From the IMG/VR virus record IMGVR_UViG_3300045988_045917, positions 1 to 39,422 of that record: a stretch of 39,422 nucleotides of DNA; one strand, written 5' to 3'. Of this stretch, positions 219 through 26,575 are shown one piece after another. Every line of letters begins with the position of its first letter. Position 1 is the stretch's first letter. The notes beneath the pieces were generated by a model. That model did not search any database. It was given only the letters and a program-made list of their open reading frames with translations, and was not told where the DNA came from. Source of the stretch: a virus. The translations under genes were made by a program, and so were the position numbers.

Positions 219-234
219 TATTTCAGCGACTATT

Positions 235-255
235 GCCTCCCCTTGAAAGGAGGTG
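235..255 (+). promoter_or_regulatory. 5' UTR hairpin sequestering the toxin Shine-Dalgarno
   Basis: CCTCC (236-240) pairs with the SD GGAGG (249-253) across an 8-nt loop. SD occlusion is a known feature of type I toxin mRNAs. Confidence 0.45.
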
Positions 256-261
256 AGTTCG

Positions 262-366
262 TTGAAGGAATTTCTAACTTTAGTTGTAGCTCCAATTCTT
301 GTGGAAATAGTGAAATCACTGTTCGATCACTGGCTGGATGATTGGCATCACAACAAAAAACACTAA
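262..366 (+). CDS. fst: Type I toxin, Fst family (34 aa, TTG start): MKEFLTLVVAPILVEIVKSLFDHWLDDWHHNKKH
   Basis: SD AAAGGAGGTG lies 6-7 nt upstream of TTG. The peptide aligns with E. faecalis pAD1 Fst (MKDLMSLVIAPIFVGLV...) including the signature LVxAPIxV, followed by a charged C-tail. It is below the 60-aa ORF-track cutoff. Confidence 0.85.
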   Translation: MKEFLTLVVAPILVEIVKSLFDHWLDDWHHNKKH

Positions 367-412
367 TAGTCGCACTTCCACCCTCAACGTTTGATAGGTT
401 GCGTCAAGCGAT

Positions 413-455
413 AAAAAAAAGCATTACCTTTTGTGACGACTAGGTAATGCTTTTT
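413..455. terminator. Bidirectional intrinsic terminator shared by the toxin mRNA and the convergent antisense RNA
   Basis: A8 run, then 9-bp stem AGCATTACC (420-428) / GGTAATGCT (443-451), then T5 run. It can terminate transcription on both strands. Confidence 0.75.
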
Positions 456-6124: not shown

Positions 6125-7265
6125 TGATCGTCACCGTCCCGACTACTGGTAATTGTGACTTTGAATTAGTAAAAACTAAATCTATATCTGCGTCCCTGCC
6201 GTTTAAAGATGGAAGCTTAGCATTGACCACACCTTCCGTCAGCATAACTTGAGACAGGATCTTAGAACGATATATGGTTTCTTGATAACCCCTACCAAGT
6301 TTTTGATTGATATCTGCCCAGTCCTTTCTCAATGATTGGAAGTAGCCCTCAACTGCTTTAGTAATGCTGTCTTTCACATACCGTGTTACTTTTGTATCAT
6401 CAAGTTTTACTGAAATATCAACATTTACAATTAATTCTTCAGGAGCAGTCACAGTTACAGCATGGTCAATTGGAGCTAATCCATAACCCTCTGCTTGCTT
6501 ATCTTCTGGGTCAAGTGTATTTTTAACTTTCTGTACTAAACTAGCACTAGCAGGCATTAAATCATTATTCAAAATAACCACTTTAACAGTACCACCACCA
6601 TTCCAAGTCGGATAAATCTGTGCTGCTCCTACTTCGTCAATCTTACTGGTCATGTCTAGGTAGTCTGCCACATTACCACCGTAAGCAATCCAACTTTGAG
6701 AGCTCAGCAATCTTGCTCTTAAGTGGTCGTCACTTTCTACATCCCTTGCAGGAGCTGTAATTTCTGTAATTTCAGCCCATGAAAGCAAGTCGTTTGGAGT
6801 AACAGGTAAAATCTGCCCGATATAACTATTAGCGCTTGAACCTTTAACTTCTGCTGTTAGTTCAACAGTTAAGTCATCATTGATCTTTGTCACAGCATAA
6901 AAAATAGGCGAGTCGCCAATACTGGCAAACTTATCGCCTATTTGAACATTATCTAACGGTTCTTTCTTGTCATTTAAAACTTTAGCTTTAGCTTCTGTTT
7001 GAGTAGCAGGGTATCGACTTGTTCCATGTTCAATTGCTCGATAGTCTAGGAACTCTCCGGAAGCTGTTTTGATATAAGTTTCCTTGATTACATTAGCCAT
7101 ATCTAAGGATTGCTGACCCATAACCAACGCAGCAGGAGCTAAAGCGTCATAGATGATTGAACCTTCACGCTTGTCAATGTTATCAGGCACAGCATCAAGC
7201 ATTTTTCTTAGAAAATAGTCATAATCTTCATTCTGAAATTCAGTAATTAGTTCATTGGGACTCAC
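6114..7265 (-). CDS. Baseplate J-like protein (XkdT-like)
   Basis: 383 aa. The N-terminal region (FLRKMLDAVPDNIDKREGSIIYDALAPAA) is typical of the Baseplate_J family. Gene order is conserved. Confidence 0.75.
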   Translation of the reverse strand: MSPNELITEFQNEDYDYFLRKMLDAVPDNIDKREGSIIYDALAPAALVMGQQSLDMANVIKETYIKTASGEFLDYRAIEHGTSRYPATQTEAKAKVLNDKKEPLDNVQIGDKFASIGDSPIFYAVTKINDDLTVELTAEVKGSSANSYIGQILPVTPNDLLSWAEITEITAPARDVESDDHLRARLLSSQSWIAYGGNVADYLDMTSKIDEVGAAQIYPTWNGGGTVKVVILNNDLMPASASLVQKVKNTLDPEDKQAEGYGLAPIDHAVTVTAPEELIVNVDISVKLDDTKVTRYVKDSITKAVEGYFQSLRKDWADINQKLGRGYQETIYRSKILSQVMLTEGVVNAKLPSLNGRDADIDLVFTNSKSQLPVVGTVTINEQ

Positions 7266-23902: not shown

Positions 23903-24814
23903 CTATATAAAATTATGAACACAATAGTCATAATACTTATGATATGCTTTTTCTAAAAAGCCAAACATATTTTCGATAGTAACTATATTATCATACTCTA
24001 CATAGCCATGAAATACCAATTTATGCTGTACTAAATCAACAGGTTCAAAAACACCGTCATCATCTATTCCTTCAACTTTCAACTTTGTAATTCCTAAATT
24101 TTCACTATTTTTAAATAGTAATTTTGCTTTAGCAATAATATCTTTTAATTTTAGCGAATCTGCTTGTAAACATACAGTCATTTTTTGGGCACCGACATCG
24201 TTAGCATATTCCATATCTTTTATTTCATCTCTTGAATTATCTTTAATTGAAGGCAAATTATTTATTTTTGCTACTGAATACGTTATCGAAGACGTATCTT
24301 GCATTTTATCTAATTTGTTAATTGCAATTTCATCTGGAATGATTGCTAAGTTTAATCCTCTAATTTTACAAAATCGGATGAGAAAAGATTTAAATAGAGC
24401 TTTATTAACACCACCAGCAGTACGAGCAAAAGCGCAGATGTGAGTATGAGTATCATACAGAAATTGTGTATTTACTACGCTACCTTGATCGTCAGTTATA
24501 GGAAGTGTTTCATTGCGTTGCTCAATATTCTTTTTCATATCGCCAACTTGAATGGGACTAGTCGGATCCAATCTGCTTAAGTTTATTAACCAAGCATAAA
24601 TTTGACCACTTTCATCAACGTAAGCTTTATTCATAGAATTTATGTAATACTTATTGTCTCCTATTTCAATCGTCTCAATCTGATCGGAATGATGAGTTTT
24701 TAATAAATTATAAGTAGTACTTATCTTATCATCTAATTTTTTTAAAGTTTCGTCTTTGCCTTCAATATGATAAAAATTGACAGTACGAGGCTTCTTATTT
24801 TTATATTGGGTCAT
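23903..24814 (-). CDS. Uncharacterised soluble 303-aa protein, moron gene 1, candidate sensor/defence protein
   Basis: SD GGAGGGAG 7 nt upstream of the ATG, with a TATAAT box at 24833-24838. AT-rich. I recognise no catalytic motif. Confidence 0.7.
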   Translation of the reverse strand: MTQYKNKKPRTVNFYHIEGKDETLKKLDDKISTTYNLLKTHHSDQIETIEIGDNKYYINSMNKAYVDESGQIYAWLINLSRLDPTSPIQVGDMKKNIEQRNETLPITDDQGSVVNTQFLYDTHTHICAFARTAGGVNKALFKSFLIRFCKIRGLNLAIIPDEIAINKLDKMQDTSSITYSVAKINNLPSIKDNSRDEIKDMEYANDVGAQKMTVCLQADSLKLKDIIAKAKLLFKNSENLGITKLKVEGIDDDGVFEPVDLVQHKLVFHGYVEYDNIVTIENMFGFLEKAYHKYYDYCVHNFI

Positions 24815-24852
24815 CCAATACTCCCTCCTAATATTATATAGATTTATTTTAT

Positions 24853-24881
24853 CAATAAAAAAAGAAGGTTACATCCTTCTT
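24853..24881 (-). terminator. Intrinsic terminator ending the structured-RNA/tRNA unit
   Basis: The minus strand reads AAGAAGG-ATGTAA-CCTTCTT followed by TTTTTTATT. Confidence 0.75.
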
Positions 24882-24922
24882 CATGAATAATATTAGGAAA
24901 AGCCAAGAAATTTCTCAGCTTA

Positions 24923-24996
24923 TGGTAACTGATGGAATCGAACCACCGCTAACTTGGTACTTCACACCAATGCTCTACCAACTGAGCTAAGTTACC
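24923..24996 (-). tRNA. Phage-encoded tRNA-Phe(GAA)-like gene with atypical features
   Basis: Cloverleaf read by eye:
- Acceptor GGTAACT/AGTTACC, 7 bp perfect.
- D-arm GCTC-AGTTGGTA-GAGC.
- Anticodon arm TTGGT-GTGAAGT-ACCAA.
- T-arm GGTGG-TTCGATT-CCATC, discriminator A.
- U8, A14, G18G19, U33 and T54-C56 are present.
- Oddities are G32 and a 6-nt variable region (GTTAGC). Confidence 0.7.
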
Positions 24997-25203
24997 CAGA
25001 CTAGGAAAGCTGCTATACTTAAGCTTCGCTTTTACGATTGCCACGGCATCTCAGTATCAGATTTAATGCAGAGTTACGTGTCATCGCCGACTTACTGCTA
25101 GCCATTAAAACAATCAACCTATATAGAAAAGAAATGTTTAGATTAGCTTTTGTCACAAAACGAACAAACCTGGGAAAAACCGTAAGAACAAAACGCCAAT
25201 CTA

Positions 25204-25311
25204 GAGGATACATCGGAATTGAACCGATAAGAGATAATCGTTGTTGGCATACTTAGCTATATCTCGGTAGAACTGCCACTACCCCAGCTCGCCAATGGCT
25301 GGCTATATCCT
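25204..25311 (-). ncRNA. tRNA-like module TL4 (108 nt): full cloverleaf-like fold with an 8-nt anticodon-position loop and a 35-nt extra arm
   Basis: Elements read by eye:
- Acceptor AGGATAT/GTATCCT (7 bp, one GU).
- D-arm CCAG-CCATTGGCGAG-CTGG (Leu-type D-loop).
- Stem GGTAG/CTACC with loop TGGCAGTT.
- Extra arm GAGATA-(23 nt)-TATCTC.
- T-arm ATCGG-TTCAATT-CCGAT. Confidence 0.5.
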
Positions 25312-25430
25312 AGAATGCTCTGTTAGGCACAGAGCTAAACCAGATGCAATTCTGTAAATTAAAATCAGACAAACAAAATATATTCGTGATCTGAACAATA
25401 TTATTTTTACGCCTGCTTTCCGACAGGCAA

Positions 25431-25455
25431 TGGGCAGGCGAGGAATTGAACCCCA
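25431..25455 (-). ncRNA. tRNA-like module TL3: T-arm plus acceptor 3' strand
   Basis: TGGGG-TTCAATT-CCTCG, then CCTGCCC plus A. The upstream part shares GGCGAGC...GCTGGGG-AGT with TL4. A possible 5' partner is GGGTAG (6/7). Confidence 0.4.
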
Positions 25456-25661
25456 CTAAACATTGTGAAAGAAAATTCCTACTTTCTTTCTAAATTCCAA
25501 ATTGTGCCAATCTACCCACGGCAGTTGCTGCTGCGGTCCAGCCAACAACTCCCCAGCTCTTCCTACGCTCGCCTCGAAACCGTTGAGGGTCGTGGCATAG
25601 GCGTCATTTACCTAGGCAACTATTATATACAATAGCCAATAATGGACTACCGCCTAGGCTA

Positions 25662-25686
25662 TCAAGCAATCAGGATTCGAACCTGA
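25662..25686 (-). ncRNA. tRNA-like module TL2: T-arm plus acceptor 3' strand only
   Basis: TCAGG-TTCGAAT-CCTGA, then TTGCTTG plus A. The upstream sequence is AT-rich with no D or anticodon arm. Confidence 0.35.
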
Positions 25687-25797
25687 GTGCCTGAGTCAAA
25701 TAAATAAGAAAAAGTAAAAAATAAAAGAATTGTAAGCCAAAAGCCAAAAATAAAATTCATTTAGAGGAATGTTTATCGCCTGAATTTACTCAGGCTA

Positions 25798-25845
25798 TAA
25801 CCGCCAGTCGGATCGAACAACTGCTAACGTCTACCAAGAACGGTT
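25798..25845 (-). ncRNA. tRNA-like module TL1: minihelix-type element lacking an anticodon arm
   Basis: AACCGTT / GGCGGTT acceptor (7 bp, two GU). D-arm remnant CGT-TCTTGGTAG-ACG. Variable region TTAGC, the same as in the Phe-like tRNA. T-arm AGTTG-TTCGATC-CGACT, discriminator A. Confidence 0.4.
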
Positions 25846-25986
25846 ACTTTAATCTGTTACTTACTGAAACAAATTAAGAACTGTATTAATTTCGAAAGGA
25901 GATTTTCTTTCAAACGTACCGCACGTAGTACTGTCAAGGTGAAGTCGAAAGATCGTAACCACCACGTCTAATCTTTCGACAATAAC

Positions 25987-26043
25987 AATTTATCATGAAA
26001 CGTACGCAAGCAGTGCGCAAGGTTTACGCAAGCTTTACGCACG
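25987..26043 (-). promoter_or_regulatory. Candidate activator-dependent (late) promoter: four phased CTTGCGYA repeats plus an extended -10
   Basis: The minus strand reads GTGCGTAAAG CTTGCGTAAAC CTTGCGCACTG CTTGCGTACGT at a 10-11 bp period, then TGATAAATT (TG-extended -10). There is no -35 consensus. It lies directly downstream of the ArpU-like gene. Confidence 0.5.
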
Positions 26044-26044
26044 A

Positions 26045-26575
26045 CTAATTTTTCCGGATCTTAATTTTATCCGGCCATACTGTTTTTACCTTTTGACTGA
26101 AAACTCTTAAGTCTGGTAAATCATCAACACCAAAGTATCTTTTCCAGTAAAGCCAACGATCAGCGAACTCACATTGTGCGTTAATCTTCTTAGTATCAAT
26201 TGACCTAGTCGACAGATTAACTGTAGCTGCTACATCAACAATGCGTAATTGATCAATGTATGTTCCAATTAAGATACGTCTGTAAGGCTTTAATGCTGTG
26301 TCAGTGCAATTATCCATTGTTCGATAAATTGCTGCACAGACCTTTCTAGCAGGATCAGCAATGTCGATATCGTCTTGTGCTTCGTCAATGAAATTCTTCT
26401 CAACGCCATTTTTGTTTGTTGATCCTGGTGCGAATGATAATTGAGGGCTTGTAAGTTGATTACGGTGTAAGCCAGCTAAATTAAGATAGCTCTGAAAATT
26501 AATAGTCAGGAACTTATCCACCCTTTTAGCAGTAGCTCTTAAATTTGGCTGTAATCCTAAGTCAATTTGATACAC
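26045..26575 (-). CDS. ArpU-family late transcription regulator (GTG start)
   Basis: 176 aa, the last gene of the early region upstream of the packaging genes. The sequence pattern is consistent with phage ArpU/RinA-like regulators. SD GAGAGGGAG. Confidence 0.6.
   Translation of the reverse strand: MYQIDLGLQPNLRATAKRVDKFLTINFQSYLNLAGLHRNQLTSPQLSFAPGSTNKNGVEKNFIDEAQDDIDIADPARKVCAAIYRTMDNCTDTALKPYRRILIGTYIDQLRIVDVAATVNLSTRSIDTKKINAQCEFADRWLYWKRYFGVDDLPDLRVFSQKVKTVWPDKIKIRKN

Follow-up and report, generated by a model that had tools for sequence, protein, structure and literature searches.

A predicted structured RNA with truncated tRNA-like modules, and an aberrant tRNA-like gene beside it, in temperate phages of Lactobacillus gasseri and Lactobacillus johnsonii

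Several non-decoding RNAs have ends that resemble transfer RNA (tRNA), among them the mascRNA of MALAT1, the C4 RNA of phages P1 and P7, the CI RNA of phage P4, and stable RNA species 1 and 2 of phage T4. These RNAs share a transcript with tRNAs or longer RNAs, from which tRNA-processing enzymes free them; those of T4 lie inside a tRNA cluster. A second group of relevant RNAs, ROOL and GOLLD, consists of large phage-encoded RNAs that lie beside tRNA islands and whose function is open (PMC12286853; PMC5737381). ROOL RNAs have an average length of 581 nt; GOLLD has been recorded in Lactobacillales, including L. johnsonii, and rises during phage lysis. In addition, tRNA-targeting immunity and the tRNA-based countermeasures of phages are well documented (PMC10264068; PMC11464382; PMC11555353; PMC12851939). 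Here, we describe a locus that touches on all three themes. The window that we analysed is the whole of a 39,422-nt IMG/VR virus record (IMGVR_UViG_3300045988_045917, positions 1 to 39,422), and it represents a temperate siphophage or prophage of the L. gasseri/L. johnsonii group. The minus strand carries every feature of the RNA/tRNA block described below, and all the genes around 24815-26045. On this strand, about 25403-25982 is predicted to encode one noncoding RNA of ~580 nt that is found in temperate phages of these two species, and 25204-25311 carries an independent tRNA-like element, TL4. Judged from sequence comparison, the two are a new family of structured RNA and an aberrant tRNA-like gene, with a narrow taxonomic range.

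The ~580-nt RNA emerged from comparison with related phages. Alignment with relatives identified 25401-25703 as a conserved element of ~300 nt with obvious compensatory changes. A pattern scan of IMG/VR together with nhmmer recovered about 40 further copies of this 3' element, and a second IMG/VR scan, seeded with an invariant upstream block, revealed a conserved 5' region of ~300 nt that nearly always adjoins it. We aligned 28 distinct full-length sequences (alignment A4) and derived the structure with RNAalifold. The resulting model has 16 helices and 101 base pairs, with 98.6% of cells paired. Both-sided changes occur in 28 pairs, a number that none of 500 column shuffles attained (16.2±2.1), and only 1-7 both-sided pairs were found when the pairing partners were slid by 1-3 columns. 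The 583-nt sequence from the window folds with a z-score of -4.65, and single-stranded blocks are invariant between subfamilies that are only ~75% identical. The RNA has no long open reading frame (ORF); its short ORFs are not conserved, and the insertions and deletions in relatives are not multiples of 3. A covariation scan supported no pseudoknots, loop-loop covariation or extra long-range helices.

The predicted RNA has two domains, a 5' domain (H1, TL1 and H5) and a 3' domain (TL2, H7-H12, TL3 and H16), which are joined by a variable, U-rich linker. Within these domains, the alignment identifies TL1, TL2 and TL3 as putative truncated tRNA derivatives: an acceptor-like helix stacks on the T arm, which is canonical (loop UUCRAWU), and the anticodon arm is missing from all three; the T loops fit the UUCRA consensus in nearly all copies. 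TL1 (25798-25846; A4 helices 2-4) comprises a 7-bp acceptor-like helix, a 3-bp D-like hairpin with the loop UGGU, and a 6-bp T arm with the loop UUCGAUC. Its D-like hairpin covaries, having U-A in 17 sequences and C-G in 11. TL2 (25662-25694) is a minihelix of 7 bp with a 1x1 mismatch and a 5-bp T stem (loop UUCGAAU), and has compensatory changes in 8 of its 11 pairs. In TL3 (25430-25519; A4 helices 13-15, which covary), an acceptor-like helix of 8 bp, GUGGGUAG/CUGCCCAU, is combined with conserved single strands, CACAAUUUGGAAU, the hairpin H14, and a 6-bp T arm with the loop UUCAAUU; TL3 has no Rfam tRNA match. The initial annotation saw an aberrant tRNA-like fold here; TL3 is not a cloverleaf, and consists of the two stacked elements, acceptor-like helix and T arm, and a single hairpin. 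The arrangement that characterizes mascRNA-type modules, an acceptor-like helix coaxial with a canonical-loop T arm, is seen in all of TL1-TL4, the corresponding helices of TL4 having 7 and 5 bp. Nonetheless, we found no sequence or model link between the ~580-nt RNA and mascRNA, C4, CI or the T4 RNAs, although no test was aimed at these, and it differs from them in holding three such modules within one conserved fold; its processing, moreover, is a prediction.

The ~580-nt RNA appears to be undescribed. We found no account of it, and no data on its expression, ends or processing, in the literature that we searched. In the five annotated INPHARED phages that we examined it is unannotated, the lone overlapping feature being a hypothetical ORF in KC5a; for Lj965 and Lj928, tRNAs are annotated in the array downstream of the RNA. 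Searching the region with Rfam 15 gave no match at the gathering thresholds, nor at E ≤ 10 on slices of 1301 and 621 nt, and the same search of seven relatives at E ≤ 0.1 returned only tRNAs. The ROOL (RF03087) and GOLLD (RF01998) covariance models likewise gave no match at E ≤ 10 in the 621- and 1301-nt slices or at E ≤ 0.1 in the seven relatives. By model, therefore, the RNA is not a ROOL, GOLLD, transfer-messenger RNA (tmRNA), viral tRNA-like structure, ribozyme or riboswitch. From the L. johnsonii sequence in the published GOLLD alignment, we took a single 38-nt block, and that block has no exact match in the loci compared. The tRNA-like domain of tmRNA and the 3' tRNA-like structures of viruses (RF00233 and similar) share with the modules described here an acceptor helix on a T arm and the lack of a normal anticodon arm. 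However, ARAGORN called no tmRNA, the only RF00023 match was a 17-nt, 8.9-bit fragment on the TL4 T arm, and the region has neither a tag ORF nor an encoded CCA; the Tymo_tRNA-like model scored 13.3 bits against a threshold of 40. Other candidates were also rejected. ACGGUUUCGAGG resembles the tmRNA 5' sequence ACGGAUUCGAC, which might suggest a tmRNA, permuted forms included, but the hairpin is optional in relatives, and both ARAGORN and Rfam were negative. AAGAGCUGG resembles the AG-bulge and distal-loop motifs of T-box stem I, but in the wrong arrangement, and again with no Rfam match. Rfam similarly gave no match to a group I intron in a split tRNA, a retron, a ribozyme, a Y RNA or YrlA.

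TL4 is, as far as the comparison of loci indicates, a separate and optional gene in the variable tRNA array that follows the ~580-nt RNA. The initial annotation described a complete cloverleaf at 25204-25311, and we found all four arms on the minus strand at exactly these positions. The acceptor stem has 7 bp (25311-25305 paired with 25211-25205); the D stem (CCAG/CUGG) closes an 11-nt loop, CCAUUGGCGAG; the anticodon stem has 5 bp (GGUAG/CUACC); the T arm is canonical (AUCGG-UUCAAUU-CCGAU); and no CCA is encoded. TL4 thus has the full set of canonical arms, including a T arm with a UUCRA loop, whereas TL1-TL3 lack the anticodon arm. Two features stand out, both of which had been pointed out before: an 8-nt loop in the anticodon position, UGGCAGUU (25278-25271), and a 35-nt extra arm (25265-25231) with a 6-bp stem (GAGAUA/UAUCUC) and 23 distal nt. 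Our measurements gave the same lengths in 8 of 8 alleles. The additional claim that no nucleotide separates the D and anticodon stems holds in the register with a 7-bp acceptor stem, but not in an alternative register, in which G26 is present and the acceptor stem has only 6 bp. Neither ARAGORN nor the Rfam tRNA model called the unmodified TL4 a tRNA, and TL1-TL4 gave no tRNA match even at E ≤ 10. Once the extra arm was cut to ≤16 nt, with nothing but the arm changed, ARAGORN called TL4 a tRNA with the 4-base anticodon 'gcag'; when the loop was also shortened by one base, the call became tRNA-Cys(GCA) or tRNA-Leu(CAG). Since ARAGORN accepts the arm-shortened TL4, we take the cloverleaf to be genuine, and the length of the arm to be the sole reason that it escaped detection.

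TL4 is present in about ten IMG/VR contigs, phage phi jlb1 and three metagenome contigs, always downstream of the ~580-nt RNA element; a pattern search of IMG/VR found no copy outside this type of locus. There are 8 distinct alleles, in which the loop is either UGGCAGUU or UGGCAAUU, differing at one variable position (G or A). A metagenome search pattern that permitted loops of 6-9 nt recovered only 8-nt versions of TL4. Across the alleles, the body of TL4 is 95% identical, whereas the 3' flanks diverge beyond alignability. In the stems, 232 of 232 cells are paired, and every stem substitution keeps pairing: one is compensatory (C-G to U-A in the D stem), and five are one-sided, mostly creating wobble pairs. 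The comparative check proposed in the initial annotation, whether the odd loop and extra arm are conserved, thus has a positive answer, with invariant lengths in all 8 alleles. Together with the covarying helices of TL3, these observations bear out the view that the tRNA-shaped elements are kept by selection rather than drifting as pseudogenes. Because the elements appear to be under selection, a non-decoding role that depends on their shape is a reasonable suggestion. We considered two possible partners for TL4 and rejected both. GGCAGUU in the TL4 loop could pair with AACUGCC in the 3' strand of H12; however, phages with the A variant of the loop retain AACUGCC, and H12 of the Lj771 type differs. 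As loop and H12 do not covary, we take the match to be due to chance. No stretch of the phage genome longer than 9 nt is complementary to the 23-nt distal loop of the extra arm, and shuffled sequences typically give as much.

The genomic setting suggests how these RNAs might be expressed. The RNA/tRNA block lies between a gene for an ArpU-like late activator (26045-26575; PHROG 'transcriptional activator'; TIGR01637, 32.9 bits, under its cutoff) and the packaging genes. Four direct repeats, TTGCG(T/C)A, with 11-bp spacing (26003-26042) directly follow the stop codon of the ArpU-like gene; an array of this type occurs once in the 39-kb window, and once per phage. In relatives, the sequence of the repeats (TGCGTAAA, CGGAC or TTGCAG) follows the clade of the activator protein and not the type of RNA (e.g. 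loci L003, L005, L006, L007, L024 and L097). Because the repeat type tracks the activator clade, the repeats behave as the activator's operator, probably the cognate one for the neighbouring ArpU-like protein, and the promoter would then be a late promoter. An extended -10-like element, TGATAAATT (25987-25995), has no accompanying -35 element; its TG-n-TAAAT block is conserved, and its distance from the repeats stays constant whatever the promoter type. The predicted transcription start is near 25981±3. Downstream of the array, a hairpin followed by a U-run (24861-24882) resembles an intrinsic terminator and lies between tRNA-Phe and the first late ORF (23903-24814); in most relatives, the last tRNA is followed, within a few tens to a few hundred nt, by a terminator-like site whose sequence is not homologous. 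The RNA, TL4 and the tRNAs therefore look like a single promoter-proximal unit heading the late operon. Given that terminator-like sites follow the array in the window and in most relatives, transcription of the late genes would require read-through or a second promoter.

We tentatively favour a model, to which we give somewhat less than an even chance, in which tRNA-processing enzymes cleave a late transcript and so release non-decoding RNAs with the shape of tRNA, which engage factors that recognize this shape; we infer the transcription, the processing and the target alike. The ArpU-like activator would turn on the single late promoter directly upstream of the ~580-nt RNA, producing one precursor with the RNA, TL4 and tRNA-Phe that either ends at the terminator at 24861-24882 or reads past it. 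The stacked acceptor-like helices and T arms would be recognized by RNase P and RNase Z, such that the precursor is cut like a tRNA array. The products would be stable, tRNA-shaped, non-decoding RNAs that, late in infection, occupy factors that read tRNA shape, the likeliest targets being host defence nucleases directed at tRNA, or tRNA-processing enzymes. Phage tRNAs that counter immunity are similar in being phage-encoded, in belonging to variable tRNA arrays, and in having altered anticodon loops (PMC10264068; PMC11464382; PMC11555353). Those tRNAs, however, are functional decoders with 7-nt loops that escape cleavage, whereas TL1-TL3 have no anticodon arm and TL4 is unlikely to decode; a role as decoy or sponge would hence be a different mechanism.

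Several observations weigh against this model, in addition to the silence of the literature noted above. The acceptor and T-arm stacks have 13-14 bp in TL1 and TL3 and are broken by a mismatch in TL2; because they deviate from the canonical 12 bp, cleavage by RNase P and RNase Z is not assured. The long-range helices (H7 and H9) and the strongly conserved single strands between modules suggest that the RNA may act as one folded body rather than as pieces cut from it. TL1-TL3 cannot be decoys for anticodon nucleases, since they have no anticodon arm, and our analysis linked no tRNA-targeting defence to these hosts. The predicted stability of TL4 by itself does not exceed that of shuffled sequence (z = 0.04), and its covariation comes from 8 close alleles, so that the statistics are weak. 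Lastly, there are natural variants that lack part or all of the RNA. Because of these losses, the RNA is probably an accessory element rather than an essential one.

The strongest alternative, though we consider it unlikely, is an architectural RNA of the ROOL/GOLLD kind: a single folded molecule, perhaps a multimer or scaffold, in which the three T loops are modules for tertiary contacts, as in RNase P RNA, T-box leaders and ribosomal RNA (rRNA), and not signals to tRNA enzymes. The similarities are considerable. Like ROOL and GOLLD, the RNA is encoded by phages and prophages, lies next to tRNA genes (PMC12286853; PMC5737381), is hundreds of nt long, and consists of multiple domains; at ~580 nt, it is close to the ROOL average, and its two conserved domains are split by a variable, unstructured linker, as in those RNAs. 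A molecule that acts as a whole would also be consistent with the long-range helices, with the conserved junctions, with the CGGAAA loop, which is conserved and resembles a GNRA loop, and with the natural deletions, which suggest that it is non-essential. On the other hand, the ROOL and GOLLD models do not match, neither pseudoknots nor loop-loop covariation are supported, and RNAs of a short type persist without the whole TL1 region of the 5' domain. The RNA further differs from ROOL and GOLLD in its recognizable tRNA-derived acceptor/T-arm modules and its much narrower distribution.

The position of the RNA at the head of the late genes raises the possibility that it is a cis-acting leader, promoting put-like processive antitermination past 24861-24882 and later terminators, or stabilizing the 25-kb late mRNA. 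We regard this as improbable. It would be consistent with the single activator-dependent promoter in the window, with all the late genes lying downstream on the same strand, and with an intrinsic terminator between the RNA/tRNA block and the first late ORF, both here and in relatives. However, excision of the tRNAs would cut the leader off from the mRNA, and one relative without the RNA, which may or may not be viable, keeps both the promoter and a terminator. Weaker, additional promoters for the late genes may also exist. The antiterminator RNAs known to us, put and EAR, are small and not tRNA-like.

TL4 might instead be a working decoder, either a quadruplet (+1 frameshift) reader or a Leu(CAR) or Cys(GCA) isoacceptor with an expanded loop; we think this has little chance of being correct. 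The 4-base anticodon read by ARAGORN fits this idea, as do the long arm and D loop, which are like those of class II tRNAs, and the variable loop position, where G or A gives CAG or CAA, both of them Leu anticodons. To our knowledge, a 35-nt arm with 23 mostly unpaired distal nt exceeds that of any class II tRNA. Canonical tRNAs have a variable region of about 4-21 nt and a 7-nt loop with U33 and purine 37, whereas all alleles of TL4 have 35 nt and an 8-nt loop, UGGCARUU; nor does TL4 match the Rfam tRNA model. No shifty site of the CUGC type was seen, although no search was aimed at one. Natural tRNAs with an 8-nt anticodon loop do exist, such as yeast mitochondrial tRNAThr1 (PMC4267643), and TL4 resembles these and the +1 frameshift suppressors in having a 5-bp anticodon stem, an 8-nt loop and an otherwise regular cloverleaf. 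Those tRNAs, however, keep U33, a purine 3' of the anticodon, and a normal variable region; in TL4, position 33 is a G and the putative anticodon is followed by UU. Because of the G at the invariant-U33 site and UU at the purine-37 site, ordinary decoding by TL4 is unlikely, and the extra arm and the 8-nt loop without U33 should, on sequence grounds, keep TL4 out of normal decoding.

It is very unlikely that the elements are decaying tRNA pseudogenes or scars of recombination with no function of their own. The array is certainly dynamic: modules are visibly shuffled among phages, deletion junctions fall in T-arm-like sequence, and the host range is narrow. In locus L194 (3600-3640), for example, the whole RNA and the tRNAs have been lost, with GGUGGUU of the H1 loop fused to the T arm of tRNA-Phe. 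In locus L028 (~6190-6230), the TL3 T arm is fused to the leader of tRNA-Phe, and deletions are also found in L182 and L186. Repeated T-arm sequences thus seem to act as recombination sites. Nevertheless, decay is largely refuted by the pair counts of the RNA and of TL4: covariation is strong throughout, the single-stranded blocks are invariant between divergent subfamilies, and the body of TL4 is kept while its flanks diverge.

The weakest alternative, to which we give almost no credence, takes the two paralogous units of ~230 nt in the initial annotation to be products of tandem duplication: the intervals between module 3' ends are indeed 231 and 227 nt, and each unit closes with a T arm bearing an identical block, GGTTCAATTCC, but Smith-Waterman alignment of 25204-25430 with 25431-25661 yields only this 11-nt block, a score equalled by 55 of 1000 shuffles, the interiors of the units are structurally unrelated, and the second unit is missing from most relatives, which lack TL4 and carry, 89-138 nt beyond the upstream element, an ordinary tRNA for Gln, Phe or Glu. 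Two other blocks that had been cited as common to the units, GGCGAGC and GCTGGGG, match the level of about three common 7-mers that we would expect by chance between two sequences of 230 nt (our own estimate, not a computed value), and in relatives each varies in one unit independently of the other. The upstream 'unit' is better described, from the alignment, as the predicted stretch of the larger RNA from just after TL2 to the end of TL3. As a whole, the ~580-nt RNA also includes TL1 and TL2 as well as long-range helices, and a promoter of its own is predicted for it.

The remaining features of the ~580-nt RNA are conserved to different degrees. The 5' hairpin H1 (25944-25980), GUCGAAAGAUU...GAUCUUUCGAC, has 11 pairs, 2 of them compensatory, and is shortened in short-type RNAs. 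The motif CUCCUUUC (25894-25901) resembles the 3' end of 16S rRNA and so looks like an anti-Shine-Dalgarno sequence; it is found in all full-type sequences, the short type having AUCCUCCAAG. An extra hairpin in the 5' domain (25851-25875) has a conserved loop containing GUAAGU and a stem that, depending on the subfamily, is AAUUUGUU/AACAGAUU or AUUUGU/ACAAAU; RNAalifold missed it because of misalignment. H5 (25778-25795), GCCUG...CAGGC, follows the invariant GGUUAUAGCC. The linker (25695-25777) varies among relatives in both length and sequence and has no conserved pairs. In the 3' domain, the H7/H8 hairpin (25611-25658), CCUAGGC...GCCUAGG, has a variable interior with GGUAGUC that is deleted in short-type RNAs. 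H9/H10 (25562-25601) consists of the helix CCUAUGCC / GG..GCGUAGG, in which 4 of 4 H9 pairs covary, around an optional hairpin, CCCUC..GAGG, that is missing in some short-type RNAs. The near-invariant junction AAGAGCUGG and the H11/H12 hairpin follow (25520-25561), with 2 compensatory pairs in H12 (G-C to U-A and U-A to C-G) in 12 of 28 sequences. The terminal hairpin H16 (25411-25428) has the conserved loop CGGAAA and compensatory changes in 3 of 5 pairs (GCCUG/CAGGC versus GUCCG/CGGAC), with no U-tract after it. Beyond H16 is a conserved spacer (25312-25410) with two small hairpins (UCAGA..UCUGA and GCUCUG..CAGAGC), which nhmmer found in nearly all relatives, with or without TL4, and which precedes whichever tRNA or tRNA-like gene stands first. 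In the short subfamily (Lj928 and JNU_P7 type), TL1 and the greater part of the 5' domain are missing, and the 3' domain is retained in trimmed form.

The family is limited to phages and prophages of L. gasseri and L. johnsonii in a BLAST search of INPHARED, and a scan of one genome per species found it only in L. johnsonii ATCC 33200. Phages phi jlb1, KC5a and JNU_P11 share ~92-94% identity with the 1.2-kb gap at 24815-26045, and the L. johnsonii prophages Lj771, Lj965 and Lj928 share ~75% identity with parts of it. An ordinary tRNA-Phe(GAA) (24923-24996; 59.6 bits with the Rfam tRNA model) is the sole canonical tRNA called in the window by ARAGORN and the Rfam model. The 207-nt stretch between TL4 and this tRNA (24997-25203, minus strand) is kept in a few relatives and has no folding signal (z = 0.02); a 64-aa ORF at 25019-25213 has no family match. 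Downstream of the array come two ORFs of unknown function, followed by terS, terL and the portal gene. A match to RF02848 RefB11 ('Enterococcus sRNA B11') at 228-415 (plus strand), close to one end of the prophage, scores 66 bits, above the gathering threshold of 54.

Sibling phages have other tRNA genes with aberrant loops, among which conserved genes with 6-nt anticodon loops recur. The loci L048 (~2600-2673), L025, L068, L010 and L131 have, about 240-640 nt beyond H16, a Phe-like gene whose 6-nt loop is UGAAAA or UUAAAA. It stands directly after a normal tRNA-Phe(GAA) in the first three of these loci and after tRNA-Gln(UUG) in the other two. Further genes with 6-nt loops are the 'tg' type of Lj965, which GenBank lists as tRNA-Ser (L003:2923-2993), and the 'tt' type of L039. 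In L066, L097 and L168, the first tRNA after the RNA is called as tRNA-Phe with the anticodon AAA rather than GAA, which is unusual for bacteria. Given that siblings carry other tRNA genes with aberrant loops, non-decoding tRNA shapes may be a recurring cargo of this slot.

Large, intricately folded RNAs are rare in bacteria and phages, and the functions of those that are known, such as ROOL and GOLLD, are open; the tRNA-derived building blocks of the RNA described here make it tractable. Phages of L. gasseri and L. johnsonii can be cultivated and induced, their hosts are genetically accessible, and the natural deletion variants provide ready controls. More speculatively, and with appreciable doubt, we suggest that the RNA forms a class of large phage RNA not described before, on a par with ROOL and GOLLD in its genomic niche and strung together from truncated tRNA 'elbows'. 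It might act late in infection as a multivalent tRNA mimic, either as a sponge, for an immune nuclease that targets the tRNA tail or acceptor, for RNase P or RNase Z, or for the CCA-adding enzyme, or as a higher-order particle, with TL4 and the Phe-like genes with 6-nt loops belonging to the same counter-defence toolkit. TL4 and the recurrent sibling genes with 6-nt loops suggest that non-decoding tRNA shapes are selected cargo. If these RNAs do serve as decoys for tRNA-targeting immunity, they would represent a strategy distinct from that of the known cleavage-resistant phage tRNAs.

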